The notes beneath the pieces are model-generated. The model saw only the letters and a program-made list of their open reading frames with translations, searched no databases and had not been told where the DNA came from. Of a DNA stretch of 64,000 bases, positions 30,907 through 44,636 are shown in pieces (the stretch's first letter is position 1; every line of letters begins with the position of its first letter). Made by a program: the position numbers and the translations under genes. The DNA is from an uncultured delta proteobacterium (lineage in GTDB: Bacteria; Desulfobacterota; RBG-13-43-22): NCBI GenBank assembly GCA_963843145.1, contig CAWJJC010000027.1, forward strand, positions 160,001 to 224,000, written 5' to 3'.

Positions 30907-32109
30907 TCACTGAAGGTCTGTAAACGATTGGGGATGGAGTTCCAGGTACCGGGATAACAATTCACGCATCATAGCCGAAGAATCAGGTTCGGGAGCAAAT
31001 ACCTCCCGTGCCCCATCCAAAGGATTCATCTTGCCACCATACATTGCTCGGGCTAATCGGGTACATTTGGATATATGCCGACCCACTTGATGGGACTGTA
31101 TCCTTTGGGTGTAATCACGAAAAGAAAAATCACTGGTTTGAAATGAATCGATAATCGCTTGGGCGGCCACCTCCCCATAAGATAGCGATAGATGGATTCC
31201 TCCTCCAAAGGCAGGCTCAATTCCTGCAGCGTCTCCCACCAGGATCACATTGGGCTTTGACAGGATGTCATCTTCCGAATGCCAGGGAATGGGGTGACTG
31301 GACCAGGTTTCGGGACCCCGATGAATATTCAGTCTTTCTAATTCACGGCCGAATATCTTCTTCATGTCTGCCCTAGGTCTATGGGGCCATACCCGGAAAT
31401 CAACAATGCCATGGGCGATGGAAGGGGCCTTACCCTTTAAGCAAGGCACGTGCCAAACATAGCCTTGCAGGCCCTCATCTATAGGCGAGAGATCAACAAC
31501 CGCCTTCTTTCCATTGAATTCGTCATCATAACGGGAATCGACCGCAGCGAATATCTGAAGTGTAGGCGCAAGATGGTGTTTCCGAGATGAGATCATCTTC
31601 TTGCGAACTGCGCTGAAAGCTCCATCCGCACCAACGAGGGCTTGGACGGCATATTTCCCCTTATTGGTTGTTACAATCAGCTTTTTCCGGGTCCGAAGAA
31701 TATCGATAAGCATTTCGTCTTCATGTAACTCAAGACCTCGATTCACCGCTGCTCTTGCCAGGGCATGATCAAAGTCCACACGCTGCACGATTCGAAAATA
31801 ATTGTTGTGGTGAAGACGATCAATCTCTTGCCCAAATCTGAACTCGAGACCAGAAACATACAGGGATGGAACATTGAGGTCCACCCTCAGGTTAGCCAGC
31901 ACATCTGCAGCCCAAATACACACGCCTCCCCCACACAACTTGTCGCGTGGGAAAACGGCTTTTTCTAAAACAATTGAACGGCGAGCCAATTGCGGGACCA
32001 CTTTTTGAAGATGCAACCAGGTGGAAATCCCTGCCGGCCCCGCCCCAACAATCATAATCGGGCAATTCAATAAACCGATTGTCGCTTTTGATCCTCGCGA
32101 AGGCATCAC
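30907..32109 (-). CDS. FAD-dependent oxidoreductase, geranylgeranyl reductase family
   Basis: IVGAGPAG, EKAVFPRDKLCGGG, VGADG, LVGDAAGIEPAFGGGI. Confidence 0.85.
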   Translation of the reverse strand: MMPSRGSKATIGLLNCPIMIVGAGPAGISTWLHLQKVVPQLARRSIVLEKAVFPRDKLCGGGVCIWAADVLANLRVDLNVPSLYVSGLEFRFGQEIDRLHHNNYFRIVQRVDFDHALARAAVNRGLELHEDEMLIDILRTRKKLIVTTNKGKYAVQALVGADGAFSAVRKKMISSRKHHLAPTLQIFAAVDSRYDDEFNGKKAVVDLSPIDEGLQGYVWHVPCLKGKAPSIAHGIVDFRVWPHRPRADMKKIFGRELERLNIHRGPETWSSHPIPWHSEDDILSKPNVILVGDAAGIEPAFGGGIHLSLSYGEVAAQAIIDSFQTSDFSFRDYTQRIQSHQVGRHISKCTRLARAMYGGKMNPLDGAREVFAPEPDSSAMMRELLSRYLELHPQSFTDLQ

Positions 32110-32116
32110 AAATCCT

Positions 32117-33808
32117 TTATAAAAGTTCTTTCAAACACCTGAGAAGTTCCTGGCCATGCGGGACCCCCCAACCTGTCACGGCATCAAAACCCCAGCAGGC
32201 TTTATAGGGTTCACAGTAATATTTTCCAGGGCCTGAAACTGCGTTATTCCCTTTTTTAATATCAACGAAGGCGGCGTTGCCGACTTGCTTACCGTTTTTC
32301 ATTTTTTTGTAGAGCATGGGAGTCAAGAATGGCAGCTTCTTGTCCGGGGGCAGCTTGGCTTTGATTCGAGCGATGAGCGCGGCCCAGACCGGTGCCGAAG
32401 CGCTCGTTTTGCCTTGCGGCCACGACTGCTGGAGAAAAACCAATTGATAATACGGCCAGCCAGCCAGGGCTGACACATCGGGCACCACGCGTTTCTTCCC
32501 TCTTGAGTAGTGGTTCGGATCAATATGACCAGTCTCCTGCCAAACCGGGCGATTGAATTTCCTGCAAACGCCGCCTCCGCTTGCGCTTCCCGGAAGCCTT
32601 TGTCCGTGCGGATCATCAGGGTCTTTTTTCGAATCTTCCCTCCAGGCGACCTCCTCTAAGGTGGATTTTTCCAACATGGTTCCGCCAACGGCCAACACGT
32701 ATGGGCTAGAGCTCGGAAAGTCGACGTGGTAACGGCCATCAGTAATTTGATTCCTCCAACCATCGTCCCCCGAGGCGACGCAGGTGGTGATGCCCTTCCT
32801 GCTTACCTGATTCAATAGGGCATCGATTTTAAAGATTTCGCCCTTTGACCATCGACGGTCATCCTCGGCATAACCCCAACTGATAGATAATACGACCGGG
32901 GTCGGCCTTGTATGGATCACCTTGGTGAGGAGATCGCACCAGCCCTTCTGTGTGTTTTTGGCAAAGAAGACCAAGATATTCGCCTTGGGACATAAGCCTG
33001 CGATGAGCTCCACATCCATCATCACCTCGAAAGTCATTAGCATTTTTTTTAATCGCAGCTCTGGATCTGGAATGCCGAGGATGTCCTTAAGCGTAAGGAC
33101 CTTGGCACCGGCCTTGGAACCGACCCGGATCAGCTTAATATTGGGAGCACGGGGAGGACGTTTATGTACGACATCCTTGAAATATTTAGTCAAGTCCTCT
33201 CTGAAATATCCCCCGCCAAATTGGGCGATCGCGATGGTCTGGCCCGCACCTTCCCCGAGGGGAAAATTATAATGGTTCGCGATCACCTTCGGTGTCCACG
33301 GTTCTGAAAGCACTTTTTTGCCAGTAGTTAAAGCGACACCTGACTTGGGAAATGCCATTTGTCGTTCGTCAAGCCCAAAGACCCCGGTCACGATTCCCTC
33401 GAGTTCCTTAGGGATTTTGAGCTTTCCCGCCCGGCCGCGATACAGGCCCTGAGTAGGCGATCGCTTCATCTCCCATTGAGGGTCAAAAGCTTTTTTCAAA
33501 TTCTCGGCAGTTCCGTTGACCTGCATGGTGCGCGTTAAGAGGGAGACCTTTTTTACTTTAAGTTTATACTTCTTCTCGAGCACTTCCTTTACCTTGTCGG
33601 CATCTGCCTCTTTGGCGCCAAATTTCTCCTTTAATTCCTTTGGGCTCATGATTCGGCCAGCAAATTCGTCCGGACCAGGAAGTTTCGGCCCCGATAATCC
33701 TATGGTTACGCTAATCTTCTCCCTGGGGTCGATATCGCCGACTTTTTTAGCGGTTGTATCCTTCCCGCGTTCGCTATCTTTTAGGTCCACAAGCGTATTC
33801 TTGGCCAT
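32117..33808 (-). CDS. S53 (sedolisin/kumamolisin-like) serine protease with pro-domain, no signal peptide
   Basis: EVMMD (catalytic E-x3-D), SISWG, ASGDDG, PSSSPYVLAVGGT, VPDVSALA, GKTSASAP (catalytic Ser), FDAVTGWGVP. Confidence 0.92.
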   Translation of the reverse strand: MAKNTLVDLKDSERGKDTTAKKVGDIDPREKISVTIGLSGPKLPGPDEFAGRIMSPKELKEKFGAKEADADKVKEVLEKKYKLKVKKVSLLTRTMQVNGTAENLKKAFDPQWEMKRSPTQGLYRGRAGKLKIPKELEGIVTGVFGLDERQMAFPKSGVALTTGKKVLSEPWTPKVIANHYNFPLGEGAGQTIAIAQFGGGYFREDLTKYFKDVVHKRPPRAPNIKLIRVGSKAGAKVLTLKDILGIPDPELRLKKMLMTFEVMMDVELIAGLCPKANILVFFAKNTQKGWCDLLTKVIHTRPTPVVLSISWGYAEDDRRWSKGEIFKIDALLNQVSRKGITTCVASGDDGWRNQITDGRYHVDFPSSSPYVLAVGGTMLEKSTLEEVAWREDSKKDPDDPHGQRLPGSASGGGVCRKFNRPVWQETGHIDPNHYSRGKKRVVPDVSALAGWPYYQLVFLQQSWPQGKTSASAPVWAALIARIKAKLPPDKKLPFLTPMLYKKMKNGKQVGNAAFVDIKKGNNAVSGPGKYYCEPYKACWGFDAVTGWGVPHGQELLRCLKELL

Positions 33809-33846: not shown

Positions 33847-35184
33847 TTATTTTATGTATTTCGTATCGAAGCCCTCAGGTGACCGATTAACTTTCTCAAT
33901 AAATCTATTCCATTTTTCTTCATTAGTCATAAATTCTGCCACCTTGAGCAGGGTCGCTTTCGTAACGGCGCGAATTATGGTGCAAATACTTTCTCGTGGC
34001 GCGTTTAAAGATCCGCAGGCGGCAAAGGTATCTCCATAGCATGGGGAGCACAATTTCTTGGCCCAGCATTGGACACACTTGGGAAAGCTGTCCTTGGAAG
34101 TCTGACTCATCAGCGCTGTCACCCTCCTAAAGTACTCACCTGGAAAATCTCTGTCATAGACGCTTCCCATGTATAGACTTTTGCTCATGACCGTATGGCA
34201 AGGGAATACCTTCCCTGTGCAGTCTACCGTAATCCCCTGGCAACCGGCGTCACAGAAACGGGCTTTCCCCTTCCGGGATGTGAGGGTATTCAAAATATCA
34301 AGCCAATAAGGAATTCTTATCGGGGAATCGGTCAACCAACTATCCATAATCCTCTCGGTCGAAGAAATGTAGCTTTGTTCCAAATCGGATAATAAAGCCT
34401 GATCAAAATATTCATCCGGTGATCCCCCGATGGCAGGGGTTAAGGATATTTCCCGGGCTCCCAAATTAAGTAAAAATTCGTAGATCGATTCGACGGGCTC
34501 CTTACATTCCCTGTGATAGTCAGTGAATACGGCTTGTATCCCGAATGCAACACCCGCATTTCGAAGCAGGTCGATTTTCTTCTTGACTAAGTAATAGGTA
34601 CCTTTCCCTGACGACAATTTGCGCTGCCTGTCATTAATGTGCGGGGGGCCATCCAGACTGATACTCACCGAGAAATGATATTTTTTAAAAAATTCAATCA
34701 TTTTTTGATCGATTAAGGTTCCATTGGTGCTGATCGAGAAATCCGGCATCAGCCTTTGATGGGCCATACAGTATTTTTCACTGGCTCGTACAGCCTCCCT
34801 GATGGCAGCAAAACCGATTAAGGGCTCACCTCCAAAAAACACAAGGCTCTGGACTTCCGGTGCGGTTTTGAATACTTTCTCGATGGCAGCACGGGCAGTA
34901 GCCGGGCTCATGACTCTGCTCTCAGGATGCAAGTCCATGTAGGCCTCGGCAAAACAATAAGAGCATTTGATATTACACGTTTGCGCTACCAATAAAACGA
35001 GGCGAGTGATTTTCGCCGGATCGGCTTTGATTGGATCATCCCTAATTGACTCCTTTAATTGCTCTGAAATGGATACCTCATCAATCGATAGAGAATCGGC
35101 AACCCGAGCCGGCAACGGATACAGGGTGAATGATTCCGTACTGAAGGCGGCGGCATTGAGATTTGACTTGAGGATTTTAATCAC
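33847..35184 (-). CDS. Radical SAM/SPASM peptide maturase-like protein
   Basis: CNIKCSYC, FFGGEPL, TNGTL, ISLDG, SPASM C..G..FPC..CVQCWAKKLCSPC..C; likely start GTG 35184 after AAAGGAAG (ORF-track start 35250 lies in a hairpin). Confidence 0.9.
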   Translation of the reverse strand: MIKILKSNLNAAAFSTESFTLYPLPARVADSLSIDEVSISEQLKESIRDDPIKADPAKITRLVLLVAQTCNIKCSYCFAEAYMDLHPESRVMSPATARAAIEKVFKTAPEVQSLVFFGGEPLIGFAAIREAVRASEKYCMAHQRLMPDFSISTNGTLIDQKMIEFFKKYHFSVSISLDGPPHINDRQRKLSSGKGTYYLVKKKIDLLRNAGVAFGIQAVFTDYHRECKEPVESIYEFLLNLGAREISLTPAIGGSPDEYFDQALLSDLEQSYISSTERIMDSWLTDSPIRIPYWLDILNTLTSRKGKARFCDAGCQGITVDCTGKVFPCHTVMSKSLYMGSVYDRDFPGEYFRRVTALMSQTSKDSFPKCVQCWAKKLCSPCYGDTFAACGSLNAPRESICTIIRAVTKATLLKVAEFMTNEEKWNRFIEKVNRSPEGFDTKYIK

Positions 35185-35226
35185 AACAAGCTTCCTTTTT
35201 TCGGTCCCATCGAGCTTCAAAGGAAA

Positions 35227-35253
35227 TCGGTGGGGTTTAAGGAACCCCACCGA
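35227..35253 (-). terminator. Intrinsic terminator/stabilising hairpin between precursor and radical SAM genes
   Basis: Perfect 11-bp stem tcggtggggtt/aaccccaccga, 5-nt loop, followed on the minus strand by tttccttt. Confidence 0.6.
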
Positions 35254-35435
35254 CAGACTGCACTGCTGTGTGACCGGTAAAGACGCCGGTACATGGACAA
35301 GTGGCCTTCATTTTGCGCCCCCCCGCCGTTGAGTCGACACAGACAAATCCAGACTAATGATCGAAAGGGTCAAAGCAGTAAGGGTAACCGTTCTAATTTC
35401 CTTACCCAGAGTCTTGAATACTCCTTGTTGCCTTA

Positions 35436-35696
35436 TCAATAAACTTTTTGCCCTGAGGGGCAGGGTGGAGGAATTGGGCTCGGATTAGGATCAGGAACCT
35501 TCCAATTTTTCTTGGCGGTCAGTATATCCTTGCAATCGTTGTAAGGTATGTCCTTGTAGCCTTTTGCCTGGAAGAAATTGTAAAGTGTTGTTTGGCTCTT
35601 TTTTGACAAGAAATCTCTTACAAGTTTTGGTTTCTTTTCTGTATCAATAATGAAGTTTATAAAATCGCTTCTGTTTCTTTGGGTTATAGACGCCAT
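35436..35696 (-). CDS. Putative RiPP precursor peptide (Nif11-like helical leader, Pro-rich C-terminal core)
   Basis: 86 aa, AAAGGA RBS, lies between two radical SAM genes; DFINFIIDTEKKPKLVRDFL...FFQAKGY resembles a Nif11-type leader; tail WKVPDPNPSPIPPPCPSGQKVY. Confidence 0.6.
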   Translation of the reverse strand: MASITQRNRSDFINFIIDTEKKPKLVRDFLSKKSQTTLYNFFQAKGYKDIPYNDCKDILTAKKNWKVPDPNPSPIPPPCPSGQKVY

Positions 35697-35907: not shown

Positions 35908-36973
35908 CTAGGTTCCCAAAATCGGTTGTCCCATGGCCAGACTATCCAGAACCCGACGGCAATAGGGTTTATCCGGGTAAAAGTCTCCATACCCTTGCGG
36001 GGGCCGAATCATTCCATTCTTCTTACAAAGTCGGACATATGGGCACGATGGACAGGTCGTATCATCCGGCGCAACGGTCATTCGATATCCCTCGGAAGCC
36101 AGTACTTTTTGAATCATACCGAACTTGTATCTGCCCAGGCTATTTCTGTTGGAGTGCACCACACTAATATGTCGGTTGGCCATGACAATCAGGCATCCCT
36201 CGCGGTAGAGGGGAGGGACCCGAGGGATCCAGGGCATCTTGAGCATCTGAGAAACGACATTGGCCAGAGGGTTCTTCTTCACAATGGCACGGAAACCGCC
36301 CACGTCCAGAAGCGCAACCATTCGCACCAGTCTCACGAAGTCTTCCGGTTCAAGAAGCTCTTCCGATAGGGCAAAGGCGCCATTCTCTGTCCTGATAAGC
36401 TGTATGAGAATTAGATAGTCAATACTTGGAAATCTCCTAAACAGATCATCAACGAAAAGAGGCAGCTCCAACAGCAGGCTTTTTGTAACTGTTGTGAAAA
36501 TGGTAAGATCAATTCCCCTATTGACCGCCTCCTCAATGCCCCGCATCGTCCTTCGATGGGATCCCTTTCCCCGTATGCGGTCATGCAAGGCTTCGGGGCC
36601 ATCTAGGCTGATGGACATCGAAAAAAAGCTGCCGTAGTCGGCGAATCTTTTGCTGATCTCTTCCGTAATGAGTGTTCCATTGGTATTCAGGAAGATTGTT
36701 TCGTCATCCGACTTTAAAGCCATGGTCCAGGGTCTCGAACAAGCCTTCCCAGAGCAGGGGCTCACCCCCTGTAATATGCAGGTGACGGTATCCGGCATCA
36801 TCTCCTTCGACTATTATCTCTTTGACCAAATTGACGGGGAGAGTAGAGCTTCTGGAGATACTAGAGCGGGCAAAACAGTGCACACAGGAGCCGTTGCATC
36901 GAGTGGTCACTTCTATAGAGAGTTTTTCTTGCCCCACTCCTCGACAGATTTCATCTGAAGTGGTCCCCTTCAT
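35908..36973 (-). CDS. Radical SAM protein (PqqE/NirJ/MftC-like) with reduced SPASM, split by a 1-nt insertion near 36705
   Basis: First part SIEVTTRCNGSCVHCFA, TGGEPLL; second part NTNGTLIT, SISLDGPEALHDRIRGKG, CPSCPYVRLC..PYC; TGATG overlap with the upstream gene. Confidence 0.82.
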
Positions 36974-37968
36974 CAGCGATTCTCCCCATTCCTCAACGGT
37001 TTCAAAAGGCAACGAAGCTCATCAGCGAAGCCTGCAAGACCGCAATAATCCGCCCTGGCTGCGGCTGATTCCAGCTCGCCGCATATCCTCTCCCTGATTT
37101 TATCGATCATCCCGTTGATCAGGATATAATTAAGAACCCTTCCGGCAGGGCCGCCCTTTCGGTTCACTTTTTCGTCCTTGACTCGGTCCCATTTTTTCCT
37201 GATGTCGTTGGGAAGACAGGTGTACAGGGAAGAATGGGTTCCCTTTATCAAATCCTTCTCGATGTCCTGCAGATCATCGAGCAGCCTCCAGGCAATGCCG
37301 AAGGAGGAATAGACCGTCTGAACAGATCGAGAAAATTCTTCATTACCGGCGATTCTTTTGGCCATCAGGACGGGGGCGATCAGCCAGGTGGCCATCTGTT
37401 TCTTAAAGAAATCGCAATAGCTATCCAGAGACTCCGTTTGATCAGATGTGTCAATGCTGGAATAATAATCTTCGATAAAATCATAAACAATTGCCGGCCC
37501 ATCTTCCACTCCCCTGGCCAGTCTCTCGAAGCCATGGTTCATGATCATCCAGGATTGGCTTCTTAAAAGGAGGGCCAGGTGTGAAACAGGCAATTGTCCA
37601 TCGGTAAGATGGTCGTCAAAAGCATGAAGGAACATGGCCATGGTATGACCGGTCTTTGCATCTTTAATAAATTTTGTGCCCAGTTTTTTGTTTCCCGGAC
37701 AGGACCGATGGAGCCAAAAAAGGATCGACCAGGCTGGCGCGTAGAAGTAGTTGACAAAACTAAGGCCGTCACTAAGGGAAGCATGCAGGTATTTCATCAA
37801 GAACAGGGTTGCCTTGGTCCGCATGGATTGAGGCAAGTATTCACAGAATGACAGGATTTCCCGATTCAGCTCTCCACGGAAGGTTTCTTCTTCTCGGGAG
37901 AGGCCCACAGCGCCAAAATCGATCCGGGAGCAGAATGACAACATATCGGCGATCCTGCCTCTCATCAA
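36973..37968 (-). CDS. Class I isoprenoid-synthase-fold protein (polyprenyl synthase/terpene synthase/ComQ-like)
   Basis: Two Asp-rich motifs, HAFDDHLTD and RLLDDLQDIEKDLIKG, in a predominantly helical-looking protein. Confidence 0.7.
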   Translation of the reverse strand: MMRGRIADMLSFCSRIDFGAVGLSREEETFRGELNREILSFCEYLPQSMRTKATLFLMKYLHASLSDGLSFVNYFYAPAWSILFWLHRSCPGNKKLGTKFIKDAKTGHTMAMFLHAFDDHLTDGQLPVSHLALLLRSQSWMIMNHGFERLARGVEDGPAIVYDFIEDYYSSIDTSDQTESLDSYCDFFKKQMATWLIAPVLMAKRIAGNEEFSRSVQTVYSSFGIAWRLLDDLQDIEKDLIKGTHSSLYTCLPNDIRKKWDRVKDEKVNRKGGPAGRVLNYILINGMIDKIRERICGELESAAARADYCGLAGFADELRCLLKPLRNGENR

Positions 37969-40900
37969 AAACCCCTCATCTCGACCAGTCGATCTATTTC
38001 TTCCAGATATGTTTCCATTTTCATTTCTTCATACCAGGCCCGTGCCTTCCCCAGATACGCCTCTCCCTTGATATTATCGAGCTTCTTATACTGGGCCTTT
38101 TCTTCGAGCAGGCATCTGCCAACCTCGAAGTAAAGCCTGGCCAGTTGAGGACGCGCCCCCAGGCGCTCCCCTTCCTGAACCGCTCTATGCCACCATCCGA
38201 GAGCTTTTTTGTGGTCATTGATCGTCCAGTAATAGGCTCCAGTAAGCCTGTACGAATCGGTCCGATGATAGGCCACTTTACGAGCAACCCTTCCCAGTGA
38301 TCTGATGGATTTGATGGCTTCCCTCTGGAATTTATCCATTTCCTCTCGATTTCCGCTTTTGGTTGATTCCCTCAAACAGTAGAGGTTATATTCCAGGTGA
38401 GTCTTAAAACAGTACGATATTTGAAAAGGGGCCGTTTCGGTTTGAACCCTAATTCTGTCGGCCTGTTCAAGGCACTCCTCCGCCTTATCGATTGCATTCA
38501 TCATGATGTGTATCCATGCCTGGAATGTATGGAACCCCCACCAAAAATTTGAATGTGCTTTTTGCCCAAAAGCAATTCCCTTTTCGCTCTCTATCAAAGC
38601 ATCATTGAGCTTCCCGGACTCGATCAGCAGCATCGTGCTAATCTCATATTTAAATACCTCGGAAAGACTATTCCCATAGACTTCGTAGAGATTTTGCAAT
38701 CTGTCCATGATCGCCCTGGCCTTGTCGAAGGAACCCTGGCAGATAGTGCCAAGGCCATGCCAGAACAAATATTGTGAGGCATTATAGATTTCTCCAATCC
38801 TGCAGTTCTTGTCTACGAGATCATCGTCATAATCCTTTAAGGCTTTCCAATTCCCCCCAAGGAAATGGTGTACCGTCTCGCAGACCTCATACATGGTGTA
38901 ATTCGTGACATCGCTTCGGCTGACGGTGTCGCTCAAAGCATTCAATGCCTTTTTGCTCAAGGCAAATGAAATTCCAGAATATGCAAACAAAGCGCTTGCC
39001 ATTACGAAGATCCCATAACCCTCTCGGAATTTTCGAAGATCGAAGGAACTGATGAACCTAAACAAATAGAAATATTCAATGAAAAATCTCTTGGCGTTGG
39101 TTAGGGATATGGAATTGATCTTTTTGGAGAACAGATCGACGATTTCGACATCTCGCTCCGTCGGCGTTTTCTTGAACTTCAGGAAGGGAAGGTGCAGGGA
39201 AACAAGAAAATGGGAAAAAGCCCACGAGAGCTTAATTAATTCAAAAACCGTGGCTTTAGGTAATTTCCCCCAGTAATAATCCAAGGTTTTGTCAAAATGC
39301 CTGATAGCCTCCTGGTGTTGCCCCCGGTTATATAAGGCCAGAGCAATGTTCTTTTCCAACATGGCCACCTTTTCGGGGTCAGCATTTTTGCCGGACTTTT
39401 TCAAATAGAGTTGGAGAGCTTCCTCATAATAATGCAGGGCCTCATCCGAGGCGGCTGATCGCAGGGCCTCCTCACCGGCCTTGATCAAGTATTCCTCGGC
39501 TTTCTCCAGACTCTCGGCCCGACAGTAATGATAGGCGAGCATGCCGTAGAACTCGTGAATTCGCTCGCTAAAGATTTTTTCTATGGACTGGGCCACTTTT
39601 TGGTGGATCTCTTTTCTCCTCTGGATCAGGATGGACTCATAGACCGCCTCTTGAGTTAAGGCGTGCGCAAAGAGATACTCTACCTCCTCCATTCGCTTCC
39701 TTTCCCTTATGAGCTGAATCTCCTTGAGGGCCTCGAGCCTGCTGTCGACCTTCTCGATGTGCCCGGCCACCGCGGTAAGGATCCGGTAGAAGAAGTTCCT
39801 GCCGATGACGGAGGCGATCCGGACCAGATTCTTTGTTCCTTCATCCAGCCGGTCGATACGGGCCATAATGAGGGCATGGATGCTCTGAGGAATGACGATA
39901 TCCTCGATCTTTTCCGTGACCCGGTATTCTCCCTTTTCCTGAACCACGGCCCTTTCAATGATCAAGGATCGCACTACTTCTTCAATAAAGAAGGGATTCC
40001 CTCCTGCTCTTTGGAGAATCTGCTCTCTCAGTAGATGGGGAAAACTTTTAATCTCGAGAAGATTATTGAGCAGTTGCCCACTCTCCGATTCTTTCAAGGG
40101 TTCCAGTTCGATCTTGGTCCAGTTGGTTGCATAGTTCTCCTGGATGAAGGCGATGATCCGCTCTCCGGTGTCGGTATAGCCGGGACGGAAGACTATAATA
40201 AAAAGAATCCGGCATTCTTCCACCAGGCGGAAGAGGGCCTTGAGAAGTTCTAGGGAACTCGTATCCACCCAGTGGAAGTCTTCCATATAGATCATCATTG
40301 GTCTGACTTCAGAGCCCCTAATGAGCAGCTCCCGCATGCTCCTAAAGATAAGCTTTTCTAAGGCCTCCCCTTCGATGCCCAGAACCCGCTGGGCGGATTT
40401 TTCGTTAAGCTTCATCCCCATGAGGGTAGCAATGAAGGGAAAGATCTCCCCGGCTTCCTCGGGATGAATGTCCCGAATGGCCCGCTCAAGTTTCCACTGG
40501 GCCTCTGCATCGGTGTCCTTGCCCCTGATCTGGGACCAATACTTCAAGGCGTCGACGATGGGATAAAAGCTTAGGCTTCTCCCCATGGAAATGGCACGAC
40601 CTTCGAGGAAGACGGTCTTTTTGACGGCTGCTGTTTGGCGCAGTTCGGCCAGAAGGCGGGACTTCCCGATCCCCGGCTCGCCGATGACGGTGATAATCCC
40701 TCCCTGACCATTGATGAGGCGAACGACCTGAAGCGATAGGAGATCCATTTCCTTCTCTCTTCCTACTAGAGGGGAATCAAAACCCACCGATCGCCTTGTT
40801 TTTTCCTTTTTCCCCACTACCCGATAAATCTTTACTGGTTCGGTCTTGCCTTTGACCCGAGCGGGGACGAGCGGTTCAAAATCAAAAAGCCAATCAGCCC

Positions 40901-41549
40901 GACGAAAGGTGTTGTGACCCACTAAAATCTCACCGGGCCGCGCCAGCGTAGACAACCGGGATGCCAGATTAACCGTATCTCCGGTAATTCCAAGGATTCC
41001 CTTTCCCAATGTTACTTCACCGGTAACGACCAGTCCTGTATTGATCCCTGAATGCATGGCCAAACGCTTTCCGACCGTGTACTCAAATTGAGGACTAATG
41101 TCCTCGATCCGTTCATGTATTTCTCTCGCCGCTCGGATCGCTCTAACCGGATCATCCTCATGAACCTTGGGCACCCCAAAGAACGCTACCACCGCATCAC
41201 CGATAAATTTCTGAATAGTCCCCTCATATTTACTCACTGTATCGCTCATCTCACCGAAGATCCGGTTCATGATCTTTTTAACCTCTTCAGGATCCAACCG
41301 CTCAGACATGGCCGTATATCCGGAGAGATCAGAGAAAAGAACCGTCACCTGCTTTCGTTCCTCTTCGATGGCTGATTCTATCTGTCTGGCAGCTAATACA
41401 TCTAATTGCCGCCCGCACCTGCCGCAGAACTGAAATCCCTCGGGATTTACGAAATGGCAGGCAGGGCAAATCCCCTCCAATTTGGTACCACATTTTCCAC
41501 AAAAATCCAGGCCATCGGGGTTATGATATTGGCATTGGGGGCATTTCAT
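37965..41549 (-). CDS. Double zinc ribbon + class III nucleotide cyclase + STAND-type ATPase + TPR protein
   Basis: CPQC..CGKC..CPAC..CGRC; VLFSDLSGYT, KFIGDA, GDTVNLASRL; GEPGIGKSR, MEDFHW, GGNPFFIEE; helical repeats in the C-terminal half. Confidence 0.93.
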   Translation of the reverse strand: MKCPQCQYHNPDGLDFCGKCGTKLEGICPACHFVNPEGFQFCGRCGRQLDVLAARQIESAIEEERKQVTVLFSDLSGYTAMSERLDPEEVKKIMNRIFGEMSDTVSKYEGTIQKFIGDAVVAFFGVPKVHEDDPVRAIRAAREIHERIEDISPQFEYTVGKRLAMHSGINTGLVVTGEVTLGKGILGITGDTVNLASRLSTLARPGEILVGHNTFRRADWLFDFEPLVPARVKGKTEPVKIYRVVGKKEKTRRSVGFDSPLVGREKEMDLLSLQVVRLINGQGGIITVIGEPGIGKSRLLAELRQTAAVKKTVFLEGRAISMGRSLSFYPIVDALKYWSQIRGKDTDAEAQWKLERAIRDIHPEEAGEIFPFIATLMGMKLNEKSAQRVLGIEGEALEKLIFRSMRELLIRGSEVRPMMIYMEDFHWVDTSSLELLKALFRLVEECRILFIIVFRPGYTDTGERIIAFIQENYATNWTKIELEPLKESESGQLLNNLLEIKSFPHLLREQILQRAGGNPFFIEEVVRSLIIERAVVQEKGEYRVTEKIEDIVIPQSIHALIMARIDRLDEGTKNLVRIASVIGRNFFYRILTAVAGHIEKVDSRLEALKEIQLIRERKRMEEVEYLFAHALTQEAVYESILIQRRKEIHQKVAQSIEKIFSERIHEFYGMLAYHYCRAESLEKAEEYLIKAGEEALRSAASDEALHYYEEALQLYLKKSGKNADPEKVAMLEKNIALALYNRGQHQEAIRHFDKTLDYYWGKLPKATVFELIKLSWAFSHFLVSLHLPFLKFKKTPTERDVEIVDLFSKKINSISLTNAKRFFIEYFYLFRFISSFDLRKFREGYGIFVMASALFAYSGISFALSKKALNALSDTVSRSDVTNYTMYEVCETVHHFLGGNWKALKDYDDDLVDKNCRIGEIYNASQYLFWHGLGTICQGSFDKARAIMDRLQNLYEVYGNSLSEVFKYEISTMLLIESGKLNDALIESEKGIAFGQKAHSNFWWGFHTFQAWIHIMMNAIDKAEECLEQADRIRVQTETAPFQISYCFKTHLEYNLYCLRESTKSGNREEMDKFQREAIKSIRSLGRVARKVAYHRTDSYRLTGAYYWTINDHKKALGWWHRAVQEGERLGARPQLARLYFEVGRCLLEEKAQYKKLDNIKGEAYLGKARAWYEEMKMETYLEEIDRLVEMRGF

Positions 41550-41871: not shown

Positions 41872-43234
41872 TCAGAATCCAATTTTGCTGCTGATCGTTA
41901 CCACCCGTTCCCGAATTTCTTCCCAATCCAGCGTCAACAGCTTTCGCTGCCGCATCACCATTTGCCCGGCAATAAAAACCGTGTCTACATCCGCCCCGGA
42001 GGCCGCATAGACTAAGTGGGAAAAGGGATGGTAGAGGGGGGTCAAATGGGGTTGGTTTAGATTGATCAAAATCAAATCCGCCTGTTTGCCCACTTCCAAA
42101 GAACCGATTTCTTTTTCCAGCCCCAGGACCTTGGCCGCCTCGAGGGTGGCCATTTCCAGGACGGAATGGGCCTCCAACACGGTAGGGTCGAGGCGATGGA
42201 CCTTGTGCAGGCGAGCGGCGGTGCCCATTTCCCGGAAGAGATCCAGGTCATTATTGCCGGCACAGCCGTCCGTGCCCAACCCCACGACTATCCCTCGGGC
42301 CAGCAGTTCCACAACCGGGGTGACCCCCGCCCCCAGCTTCATATTGCTTTCCGGGCAATGGCTAACACGTGTCCCCGCTTCGGCCAGGAGTGCCATTTCC
42401 TCCAGATCCGGATAATTCACATGGACCCCGATAGTGGAATCATCCAGACAACCCAACCTATGCAAATAACGAACCGGGGTCAGACCGGTTTGACCCTGGA
42501 CCAGGGCCACCTCCTCCCGGGTTTCCGCCAGGTGAATAAATAAAGGAATCGCCTTTTCCAGGGCCAGGGCCTTGGCCTTTTCCAGGGTCTTCGCGGAGCA
42601 GGTGTAAGGAGAATGGGGGAACAACCCCAGTCGGATCCCGAGGAGATTGTCCGGACCATTTTTCGATGAAATCCCGGGCCGAACGGATATTGTCGGCCGG
42701 GTCCGGGACACCCGGGGCCGGAAAATCAATCACCCCCGGGGCCAGGACAGCCCGCATGCCGGACTGATAAATCGCTCGGGCGGCGCCATCCAGGCAAAAA
42801 TAGCCGTCGGCCAGGGTGGTGGTCCCGGAGCGGATCATTTCAGCGCAGGCCAGGAGGCTTCCCCAGTAAACCGTCTCCGGGTTGATAAACCGGGCCTCCG
42901 CGGGGAAGATGTGCTTTTCCAGCCAGTCCTTCAGGGGCAGGTCGTCGGCCAGACCCCGGAAAAGGGTCATGGCCGAATGGGTGTGGGTATTGATCAGCCC
43001 CGGCAGGACCAGGAACCCCCGGCCGTCAATCACTTCCCGGGCCGTCCAGAGCTCCGGACAACGGGCGCCGAGATACGTAATCCGGCTGTCTTTGATGCCT
43101 ATGGAGCCGGTCGGAATCGGGTCGGGATGAGCCGGGGACAGGGTTAGGATCAGTCCGTCCTTGATCAAAAAATCAAAATCCTCCTCGACAGGCCCTTGTT
43201 GCGAGGGTAGTTTCGAATTTTGATATTTGGTCAT
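41872..43234 (-). CDS. mtaD: MtaD-like 5'-methylthioadenosine/SAH deaminase (amidohydrolase), copy 2, frameshift near 42638
   Basis: PGLINTHTH, LFRGLADDLPL, then PHSPYTC, HLAET, HCPESNMKL, GTDG; one extra G joins the two ORFs. Confidence 0.8.
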
Positions 43235-43292: not shown

Positions 43293-44636
43293 CTAATTTA
43301 GCCGGGCCAGCCGCAAAGACTCGGCGAAACGATTCGCCCGGGATAAAATTTCTTTAAGATCCAGGGTCAACAGCTCCCGGTTCTTCATCACCGTTCGGCC
43401 ATTGATGATCACCCGGGTGACATCGGCGCCCCGAGCCGCGTAGACTAGATGGGAATAGATGTTATAAAGTGGTGTCAGGTGCGGTTGATCCAGGTCCAAG
43501 AGTATAATATCGGCCTTTTTTTCGGCCTCCAGGGACCCCACCCGGGATTCCAGCCCCAGCACCCGGGCACCGCCGCGGGTAGCCATCCGGAACACGGTGC
43601 GGGCATCCATGACAGTGGGATCCAGACGATGGACCTTATGCAGTTTGGCCGCCGAATCCATTTCCTGAAACAAGTCCAAATTGTTGTTGCTGGCGCAGCC
43701 GTCGGTCCCCAGGCCGACGCAAACCCCCCGGCGTAACAGCTCTACCACCGGGGCCACCCCGGAGGCCAGTTTCATATTACTTTCCGGGCAATGGACCACC
43801 TTGACCCCCGCGGCCGCCAGGGTTTTCTGGTCGGCTTCCGGGAGCACCACGCAGTGAACGGCGATTAGATGCGCGTCGAGCAACCCCAATCGGGCCAGGT
43901 GCTGGGTCGGCGAGACCCCGTATTGTTTCAAAATCTGATCTGCTTCGGTTTGGGTTTCCGCCAGGTGGATGATCAGGGGAACCCCGGTTTCAGCCGACAA
44001 CCTTTTGGCCTGGAGGAGCAACTCCGGGCCGCAGGTGAACGGGGTGTGGGGTTCAACGGCCACAGAAATCAGGGGGTCATCCCGGTATTTCCGGATCAAC
44101 TCACGAGTATATTCAAACCCCTTTTCCAGGGGCCCGTAATTGGGGGAGGGAAAATCGTAAAGCACTTCTCCCACCAAAGCCCGCAGGCCGGCCTCCTGGG
44201 CGGCCCGAGCCACCTGGCCCTCGAAAAGGTACATGTCGCAGAAGGTGGTGGTACCGGACAAGATCATCTCCGCGCAAGCCAGCAAGGTCCCCCAATAGAC
44301 CCATTCCCCGGTCAGGCGGCGTTCCGCCGGAAAGATATGGTTTTCCAGCCAATCCATCAGCGGCAGGTCGTCGGCCAAGCCGCGCAGCAAGGTCATGGCC
44401 GCATGGGTATGGCTATTGATCAAACCGGGCAAAACGGCCCCTCCGCGGGCATCAACGACTTCCTTGGCCTTTAAGGCCAACGGCGCCAGCTCTTGTTCCG
44501 GTCCTACGGCCAAGATAGAATCTCCGCTAATCGCCAGGGCCCCGGGATGAAAAATATTCAGCCGGTCATCCATGGTGACTACCAGGCCGTTTTTTATGAA
44601 TAGATCAATGGGTTTTTCTGATATCCGAACGCTCAT
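43293..44636 (-). CDS. mtaD: MtaD-like 5'-methylthioadenosine/SAH deaminase (amidohydrolase), copy 1
   Basis: PGLINSHTHAAMTLLRGLADDLPLMDWL, HLAET, HCPESNMKLASG, GTDGCASNNNLD. Confidence 0.87.
   Translation of the reverse strand: MSVRISEKPIDLFIKNGLVVTMDDRLNIFHPGALAISGDSILAVGPEQELAPLALKAKEVVDARGGAVLPGLINSHTHAAMTLLRGLADDLPLMDWLENHIFPAERRLTGEWVYWGTLLACAEMILSGTTTFCDMYLFEGQVARAAQEAGLRALVGEVLYDFPSPNYGPLEKGFEYTRELIRKYRDDPLISVAVEPHTPFTCGPELLLQAKRLSAETGVPLIIHLAETQTEADQILKQYGVSPTQHLARLGLLDAHLIAVHCVVLPEADQKTLAAAGVKVVHCPESNMKLASGVAPVVELLRRGVCVGLGTDGCASNNNLDLFQEMDSAAKLHKVHRLDPTVMDARTVFRMATRGGARVLGLESRVGSLEAEKKADIILLDLDQPHLTPLYNIYSHLVYAARGADVTRVIINGRTVMKNRELLTLDLKEILSRANRFAESLRLARLN

Follow-up and report, generated by a model that had tools for sequence, protein, structure and literature searches.

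A small tyrosine-ending peptide encoded behind a prenyl-synthase-fold protein and a radical SAM enzyme: candidate substrate of an undescribed RiPP-like maturation system

Several described systems for small peptides come close to the locus presented here. In Nif11 systems the leader carries a Gly-Gly cleavage site and is served by a C39 peptidase transporter, and PapB, a radical S-adenosylmethionine (SAM) maturase of the thioether type, has the target motif C-x3-D/E. In the ComQ/ComX system of Bacillus, ComQ is homologous to the farnesyl and geranylgeranyl diphosphate synthases, keeps their first aspartate-rich motif (FARM) and carries a pseudo-motif in place of the second (SARM), and ComX is prenylated on a Trp at position -3 or -4 (PMC5331326). 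For mycofactocin, PMC10288494 gives the oxidative decarboxylation of a C-terminal Tyr as the first step of the radical SAM enzyme MftC, and the Val-Tyr pair as essential. It is the second step of MftC that needs this pair. Here we analyzed a stretch of 64,000 nucleotides from an uncultured delta proteobacterium (contig CAWJJC010000027.1, positions 160,001 to 224,000; hereafter the window) and focused on a short open reading frame (ORF) on its minus strand, 35436..35696, which encodes 86 amino acids (aa). We consider, with a probability of about 0.65, that this ORF encodes the substrate peptide of an undescribed maturation system resembling those of peptides that are ribosomally synthesized and then modified post-translationally (RiPPs), and that the peptide is modified at its C-terminal Tyr. 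An earlier note on the same DNA, made from the sequence alone, had proposed a RiPP-type precursor with radical SAM neighbours, and two radical SAM genes do flank the ORF. The two invariant upstream partners that define the system, a protein of prenyl-synthase fold (here called p331) and a radical SAM enzyme (rSAM2), were absent from that note.

The ORF is a true gene and more than a chance reading frame. Its translation, MASITQRNRSDFINFIIDTEKKPKLVRDFLSKKSQTTLYNFFQAKGYKDIPYNDCKDILTAKKNWKVPDPNPSPIPPPCPSGQKVY, is identical to the one given before, and its last 22 residues, WKVPDPNPSPIPPPCPSGQKVY, contain the eight Pro, the single Trp, the single Cys and the Val-Tyr end that had been described. 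Gly-Gly is found nowhere in the 86 residues, also as noted before, and the second Cys of the precursor, C55, sits inside the leader. A ribosome-binding site similar to AAGGAtG can be read from the sequence 5-6 nt 5' of the ATG, and the gene is present in the genome as a single copy. Homologues were collected in four ways. A word-indexed search of 5.8 billion proteins returned eight candidates, one of which is the query itself, leaving seven homologues with E values from 2.7e-28 to 1.3e-15. Pattern scans confirmed one locus (L003) out of 494 matches in representative genomes and at least 11 loci (L004-L014) among the 591 matches listed for metagenomes; 14 precursor ORFs were read from the related loci, because L005 holds two in tandem. 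The upstream enzyme was searched for in 401 genomes of the same phylum and is present in nine, and six of these regions were fetched: five have a much more divergent small ORF at the same position, and the contig of the sixth stops short of it. At last, a profile search with 24 members gave 19 proteins from 795 candidates, five of them new. The precursor family totals 29 distinct sequences.

All 29 members end in Tyr, whereas in the control, the open frames of 60 aa or more in the window, 11 of 460 do (chance rate about 2.4%). In the 24-member alignment, which includes the divergent sequences, the terminal Tyr is the sole invariant column, and the 19 close members share D11, F12, F15, F29, F41, F42, C55, I58 and Y86. 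The leader of about 60 aa follows the pattern DFINFI...FF..KGYKDIPYNDC.DIL, is helical by this pattern and is conserved, and the part behind it is variable, with tails from ..AGVKY to a Pro-rich stretch of 45 aa. The members are built of a conserved helical leader, a linker that varies freely in length and sequence, and a Tyr at the C-terminus that is invariant. The earlier note had the terminal Val-Tyr among its candidate sites, and the alignment of homologues, run as a check, bears out the Tyr as the key residue. Three other features of the window peptide to which that note gave weight do not extend to the family: at least five Pro within the last 25 aa, as for a poly-Pro core, are found in only five of 29 members, a Trp in the same part, suggested as the prenyl acceptor, in five as well, and the Val-Tyr pair, suggested for MftC chemistry, in only three, while 13 members end in Gly-Tyr. 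A Cys exactly seven residues before the end (C-x6-Y) is found in 11 of 29, and in a few more it lies at -6 or -8. The two tandem precursors mentioned above (L005:1046-1342 and L005:1378-1629) share one leader but differ in their tails, which read ..KPCGPRAGY and ..KPVCAGGVMGY.

The gene of the peptide always lies behind p331 and rSAM2, a pair that is coupled or fused, and behind a STAND cyclase (Table 1). In fact, p331 and rSAM2 are adjacent and in this order in 15 of 15 loci, with the precursor directly after rSAM2, and the regulator stands directly upstream of p331 in all 12 loci that extend that far. In the window the regulator and p331 overlap by 4 nt and the stop of p331 overlaps the start of rSAM2; in some organisms p331 and rSAM2 are fused into one protein. 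The model nearest to the regulator in NCBIfam is a TOMM kinase/cyclase fusion (TIGR03903-like; E 1.2e-90, below the cut-off). All seven genes of the cluster lie on the minus strand.

Table 1. Genes of the cluster, with positions in the window and the basis of each assignment.
Feature	Position	Strand	Size	Domains, motifs and evidence
Regulator/sensor	37965..41549	minus	1194 aa	Double zinc ribbon, adenylate/guanylate cyclase, AAA_16 STAND ATPase, MalT-like TPR
p331, predicted trans-prenyl diphosphate synthase fold	36973..37968	minus		AlphaFold2 model, structure and profile comparison
rSAM2, core radical SAM enzyme	35908..36973	minus	about 367-400 aa in relatives	CxxxCxxC and four C-terminal Cys
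Precursor peptide	35436..35696	minus	86 aa	Leader about residues 8-60, variable Pro-rich linker, tail CPSGQKVY, C-terminal Tyr
rSAM1, putative accessory radical SAM/SPASM maturase	33847..35250	minus	467 aa	Family-model and PDB matches
Sedolisin (S53) protease with pro-kumamolisin activation domain	32117..33808	minus		PF09286, E 5e-11
Flavoprotein, geranylgeranyl-reductase superfamily	30907..32109	minus	400 aa	TIGR02032, E 2.8e-34, 119 bits vs cut-off 158.8

The genes behind the precursor differ from locus to locus. rSAM1 follows it in seven loci, and the S53 protease and the flavoprotein are also present in the four of these that extend that far. In eight loci a B12-type radical SAM enzyme follows, with a C11 clostripain-like protease next to it in one of them. 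One locus (L039) has an S8 subtilase, a B12-type radical SAM enzyme and a flavoprotein after the precursor, and another (L038) the flavoprotein alone, so that the protease is of S53, S8 or C11 type according to subtype. rSAM1 is present only at loci whose precursor has a tail Cys: this residue occurs in 7/7 rSAM1 loci against 0/8 loci with the B12-type enzyme, in agreement with the suggestion of the earlier note that the Cys is a candidate thioether site. We then built a tree of rSAM2 with 17 rows, from which L009 was dropped for its short match and in which L014, having no rSAM2, has no row. The rSAM1 and the B12-type loci interleave within one close clade, where type A needs two changes (one possible) and type B at least four, and therefore the accessory module has been swapped repeatedly, with the tail Cys following the module. 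Accessory maturases and proteases are interchangeable in these loci, and the presence of the tail Cys goes with that of the thioether-type maturase. Between the precursor and the B12-type enzyme of L012, at L012:1571-1777, we also found a remnant of the N-terminal 70 residues of rSAM1 (55% identical), which looks like a trace of such a replacement.

The first invariant partner, p331, was compared with known proteins by structure and by profile. An AlphaFold2 model from an alignment of 81 sequences reached a pLDDT of 95.4 and a pTM of 0.93; a first model from six sequences had a pLDDT of 53 and was discarded in its favour. The best Foldseek matches of the model in the PDB are farnesyl and geranylgeranyl diphosphate synthases (template modelling score 0.51-0.66, 9-15% identity), and VIA-align superposes it on solanesyl diphosphate synthase with Z 22.3 and a root-mean-square deviation of 2.9 Å over 286 residues, many other prenyl synthases having Z of 18-22. 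In the 81-sequence alignment H115, H120, D123, Y168, R228, D231, D232 and D235 are invariant, and two Asp-rich motifs, DDHLTD (118-123) and DDLQD (231-235), are present. With hhalign against eight polyprenyl synthases from related genomes (probability 76%, P 2.3e-5), DDLQD is placed on the SARM, and a looser, extended alignment also places DDHLTD on the FARM. The nearest Atlas cluster is named 'Terpene synthase' (0.98). A sequence-profile search of the PDB with p331 gave nothing; the copies of the window and of L003 have no NCBIfam match at E up to 0.01, and in Pfam there are only sub-threshold matches (polyprenyl_synt, E 0.02, for the L003 homologue). In a library clustered at 50% identity, 263 representatives of the p331 family were found at E up to 1e-3. 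Among the best 150 of these, seven exceed 600 aa and were scanned, and in five of them a Radical_SAM domain follows the p331 part. Two fusions with FAD-binding domains were also seen, P0058 with an N-terminal FAD_binding_3 and P0124 with a C-terminal FAD_binding_4; as judged from these domain matches, they connect the p331 fold with flavoenzymes in addition to radical SAM enzymes.

The arrangement is similar to that of ComQ/ComX in that the gene of a prenyl-diphosphate-synthase-fold enzyme stands just upstream of a small precursor and a sensor or regulator is co-encoded, and the precursor resembles ComX in having a conserved N-terminal part, a C-terminal part that is hypervariable and, close to its end, one aromatic residue that never changes. 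The two systems differ in four respects. First, the invariant residue is here the very last one and is Tyr, not Trp. Second, p331 keeps a full DDLQD at the SARM position, together with DDHLTD at the FARM position, and the former is invariant in the 81 sequences. Third, a radical SAM enzyme is an obligatory partner here. Fourth, the sensor is a STAND/TPR cyclase and not a two-component pair of the ComP/ComA kind.

Besides its CxxxCxxC motif, the second partner, rSAM2, has four C-terminal Cys that are invariant and would suffice for one auxiliary cluster. Among curated models, those that best match the intact enzyme of L003 are AhbD (E 1.3e-26), AhbC, NirJ and MftC (TIGR03962, E 1.5e-19, 70.4 bits vs the cut-off of 265), and the best sequence matches of rSAM2 in the PDB are SkfB (5e-13), the decarboxylase BlsE (2e-10), anSME and MoaA. 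It is similar to mycofactocin maturation that MftC, also a radical SAM enzyme, targets the C-terminal Tyr of the small peptide MftA, that the window peptide ends in Val-Tyr, and that the MftC model is among the better matches of rSAM2. On the other hand, rSAM2 has four and not seven C-terminal Cys and does not reach the cut-off of TIGR03962, MftB, MftD, MftE and MftF are not found among the seven cluster proteins with Pfam and NCBIfam, and the leader of about 60 aa is Nif11-like while MftA is short. In the window assembly an extra base at 36705, as compared with L003 and L007, makes a TGA and splits rSAM2 into two ORFs, 36704..37012 and 35908..36801. We compared the rSAM2 region with three soil-metagenome DNA runs, whose short-read contigs cover positions outside the precursor itself. 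One contig (231 nt, depth 2.4), otherwise identical to the window, is without base 36705, and therefore the split is probably, on this thin evidence, an assembly error or a minor variant.

We also predicted the complex of the window precursor with the window p331 and the L003 rSAM2. The median ipSAE was 0.43 (runs 0.43, 0.01 and 0.52), the best of three controls had 0.02, and replacing rSAM2 with an unrelated protein brought the value down to 0.02; contact agreement was at least 0% and the pLDDT of the partner at least 61. In the calibration of the tool, 58 of 80 solved complexes and two of 110 mismatched pairs attained the mark, and scores up to 0.60 included only seven of those 80 together with both mismatches. 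The prediction lends weak support to a binding of the precursor by p331 and rSAM2.

The three accessory enzymes of the window's subtype were assigned by family models and PDB matches. rSAM1 matches the NCBIfam models of PapB (E 6e-55, 186.8 bits vs cut-off 340), the nif11-peptide maturase (4e-53, 180.7 vs 518.7), QhpD (5e-50, 170.6 vs 453) and the SCIFF maturase (2e-41, 142.2 vs 425), and its nearest PDB match is CteB (3e-21). By these scores it is a relative, not an equivalog, of the PapB/CteB/QhpD maturases. As in the thioether maturation of ranthipeptides, SCIFF and QhpC by these enzymes, a SPASM maturase tracks a core Cys. The locus is unlike them in three points: the core has one Cys only, whose distance from the terminal Tyr is fixed, no Asp/Glu acceptor of the PapB kind follows the Cys in CPSGQKVY, and rSAM1 is an accessory enzyme and not the defining one.

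The S53 protease aligns with pro-kumamolisin (1t1e, E 2.7e-54), and its EVMMD, SGDDG and GKTS fall on the ExxxD, SGDxG and GTS motifs, which we take to hold the catalytic Glu, Asp and Ser of the family. Among the seven cluster genes Pfam and NCBIfam find no transporter, C39 included. The proposal made earlier from the lack of Gly-Gly, that the leader is cut by this protease rather than by a C39 transporter, agrees with this and with the intact kumamolisin motifs, and the S53 enzyme is, from its family assignment, the probable leader peptidase. The flavoprotein is an accessory gene present in seven loci, and its CGG/CAGG and YVWH(V/F)P are conserved in 6/6 homologues; we read these as motifs of the geranylgeranyl reductase (GGR) type. 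A reading as halogenase, raised by PDB matches to CmlS and 5buk at E of about 1e-4, was set aside because the NCBIfam match to GGR is far better (2.8e-34) and the two motifs are found in all six homologues.

The leader had been described as Nif11-like. A distant likeness is suggested: hhalign of 24 members with nine Nif11 domains from genomes of the same phylum gave a probability of 64% (P 6.4e-5) with 50 columns in register, where 19 members had given 23%, and the nearest Atlas cluster to the precursor, which is a lead only, has Nif11 on 40% of its members (score 0.77). Membership of the Nif11 family did not hold with the curated models. None of 19 members exceeds the cut-off of the curated Nif11 models, PF07862 and TIGR03798 each matching one member (E 0.087 and 0.086), and a PF07862 scan of the whole genome did not match the precursor ORF at E up to 1. 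On these profile comparisons the leader appears distantly Nif11-like and not a member of the family. Like the Nif11 systems (PF07862, TIGR03798, TIGR04064), the precursor shows a three-helix leader pattern ending in K-G-Y/F, and rSAM1 matches the nif11-peptide maturase model below its cut-off; the Gly-Gly site and the C39 transporter of those systems are absent here. True Nif11-domain peptides occur in eight of 151 sampled genomes of the same phylum (L016-L028). Some of these are in tandem arrays with Gly-Gly sites (three copies in G129), and L025 has two Nif11 repeats within a single ORF.

Taken as a substrate, the peptide would be handled as follows. The leader would dock it on the pair of p331 and rSAM2, and the free C-terminal Tyr would be the site of modification. 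A free carboxylate, or the position of the Tyr, may matter to rSAM2 and so require this residue to be C-terminal. This enzyme would perform radical chemistry on the Tyr, for which our best guesses are oxidative decarboxylation, with the first MftC step as the nearest precedent (PMC10288494), or the formation of a C-C or C-S link. The two Asp-rich motifs of p331 would serve to bind an isoprenyl diphosphate, whose prenyl group p331 would transfer or present, as ComQ does. In the window's subtype rSAM1 would most likely make a thioether from the tail Cys, and since the C-x6-Y spacing is fixed, a ring extending towards the Tyr end may be suspected. The S53 protease would remove the leader, and the GGR-type flavoprotein may saturate the prenyl chain; we infer from the domain assignments that both this flavoprotein and the FAD fusions of p331 would fit such a chain. 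The product would probably be a small lipidated or cross-linked C-terminal peptide, and the link of the cassette to a cyclase suggests that it is a signal. A more specific version, in which p331 and rSAM2 join an isoprenoid to the C-terminal Tyr, possibly after oxidative decarboxylation, and yield a lipo-tyrosine product of a new, peptide-derived class, either a diffusible signal sensed by the STAND/TPR adenylate cyclase of the same transcript or a prenylated quinone-like cofactor, is offered tentatively and is on balance doubtful.

Several points weigh against this interpretation. The chemistry is inferred. p331 has no recognizable GGKRxR and RRG basic motifs of the chain-elongating synthases, in a part of the alignment that is of low confidence, and its first motif is DDxxxD, not DDxxD; therefore it could bind a ligand other than an isoprenyl one or be a docking domain only. 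rSAM2 is far below every curated cut-off, so that decarboxylation is a guess, and it is frameshifted in this assembly, where the error is argued from a single contig at depth 2.4. The predicted complex is weak, of mixed origin and with one of three runs at 0.01. The PDB matches of the flavoprotein to halogenases are about as good as those to GGR. Finally, the loci are related to one another, and counts such as 7/7 are not independent.

Among the alternatives, the one that stands best is that the precursor serves as a scaffold of the mycofactocin, PQQ or pearlin type, from which only the terminal Tyr, perhaps with its neighbour, ends up in the product, for example a prenylated and decarboxylated tyramine- or quinone-like cofactor or signal, the rest being a disposable handle that the protease cuts off. 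That only the last residue is invariant and that the linker is free in length and sequence would suit such a role, as would the recruitment of unrelated proteases (S53, S8 and C11) by different subtypes and the position of rSAM2 near MftC and the AhbD-type decarboxylating radical SAM enzymes; the GGR- and UbiH-type flavoproteins together with a prenyl-synthase fold recall the prenylquinone pathways. We nevertheless regard it as unlikely. The fixed C-x6-Y and a dedicated thioether-type maturase speak for an octapeptide or more being retained in the window's subtype, the Val-Tyr pair of mycofactocin is present in 3/29 members only, and no homologue of MftB, MftD, MftE or PqqB/C/D was found among the seven cluster proteins scanned.

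The model of the earlier note combined MftC-like decarboxylation and cross-linking of the Val-Tyr end with prenylation of the Trp and a functional poly-Pro core. It agrees with the window peptide, which has all three features, and with the match of the mycofactocin radical SAM model to rSAM2 (E 1.5e-19), but the Val-Tyr pair, which MftC needs (PMC10288494), occurs in 3/29 members, the tail Trp and the Pro-rich tail in 5/29 each, and the score for TIGR03962 is 70 bits against 265, and we hold the model to be very improbable. A last alternative denies that the ORF encodes a substrate and takes its product for a small, folded, helical protein of the operon with an accessory or regulatory role (a chaperone, an adaptor or an antitoxin-like protein) and a structural C-terminal Tyr; we find it hardly credible. 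In its favour are the 60 N-terminal residues, strongly conserved and predicted to be helical by pattern, and a chance-level match to the MazE antitoxin (E 0.0034). Against it are a variable unstructured tail with one invariant end residue, which is typical of substrates and not of folded adaptors, a tail Cys that co-varies with a peptide maturase, co-encoded proteases, tandem copies with different tails in L005, and a PDB profile search with nothing below E 0.05. The MazE match itself, from NCBIfam, has 17.7 bits vs a cut-off of 65 and was judged to be chance, and the profile search with the precursor family gave chance-level matches only (E 0.056 or more).

Curated families exist for neither the precursor nor p331: the family of the precursor, compared by its window peptide and by 19 members, and p331, compared by its copies in the window and L003, have no meaningful match in NCBIfam and none in Pfam at the cut-off. 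A full-text search of the literature, with supplements outside its scope, found no description of the cassette, although the radical SAM compendium of PMC10288494 may list its enzymes. The discovery of RiPPs depends on recognizing new pairings of precursor and enzyme, and this pairing offers a simple testable rule, that the peptide ends in Tyr, and a compact minimal set of three genes. Rule and gene set point to a chemistry unseen in RiPPs, in which a C-terminal residue is worked on jointly by a radical SAM enzyme and a protein of prenyl-synthase fold; we know of no RiPP with Tyr-directed, radical-assisted prenylation of the peptide. There are 263 representatives of p331, so a whole product class may be hidden. 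Moreover, a STAND adenylate cyclase accompanies the cassette throughout, which suggests that anaerobic bacteria of soil and sediment have a signalling circuit based on a peptide; to our knowledge, such systems are barely known in these bacteria.

We also looked at the DNA around the precursor gene. In the 190-nt spacer after it, RNA folding shows no structure beyond that of shuffled sequences (z +1.21), and a scan for promoters and terminators gave values near the shuffle means. A 12-bp GC-rich hairpin followed by TTCCTTT (35226..35254, minus strand) spans the GTG start of rSAM1 and could attenuate read-through or translation after the precursor. An amidohydrolase-like gene (41872..43234, minus strand) seems to be split as well, its two overlapping ORFs being 41872..42729 and 42458..43234. 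Possibly this is a second frameshift, in keeping with an assembly prone to errors, and an intact paralogue of 447 aa (43293..44636) adjoins the split gene.

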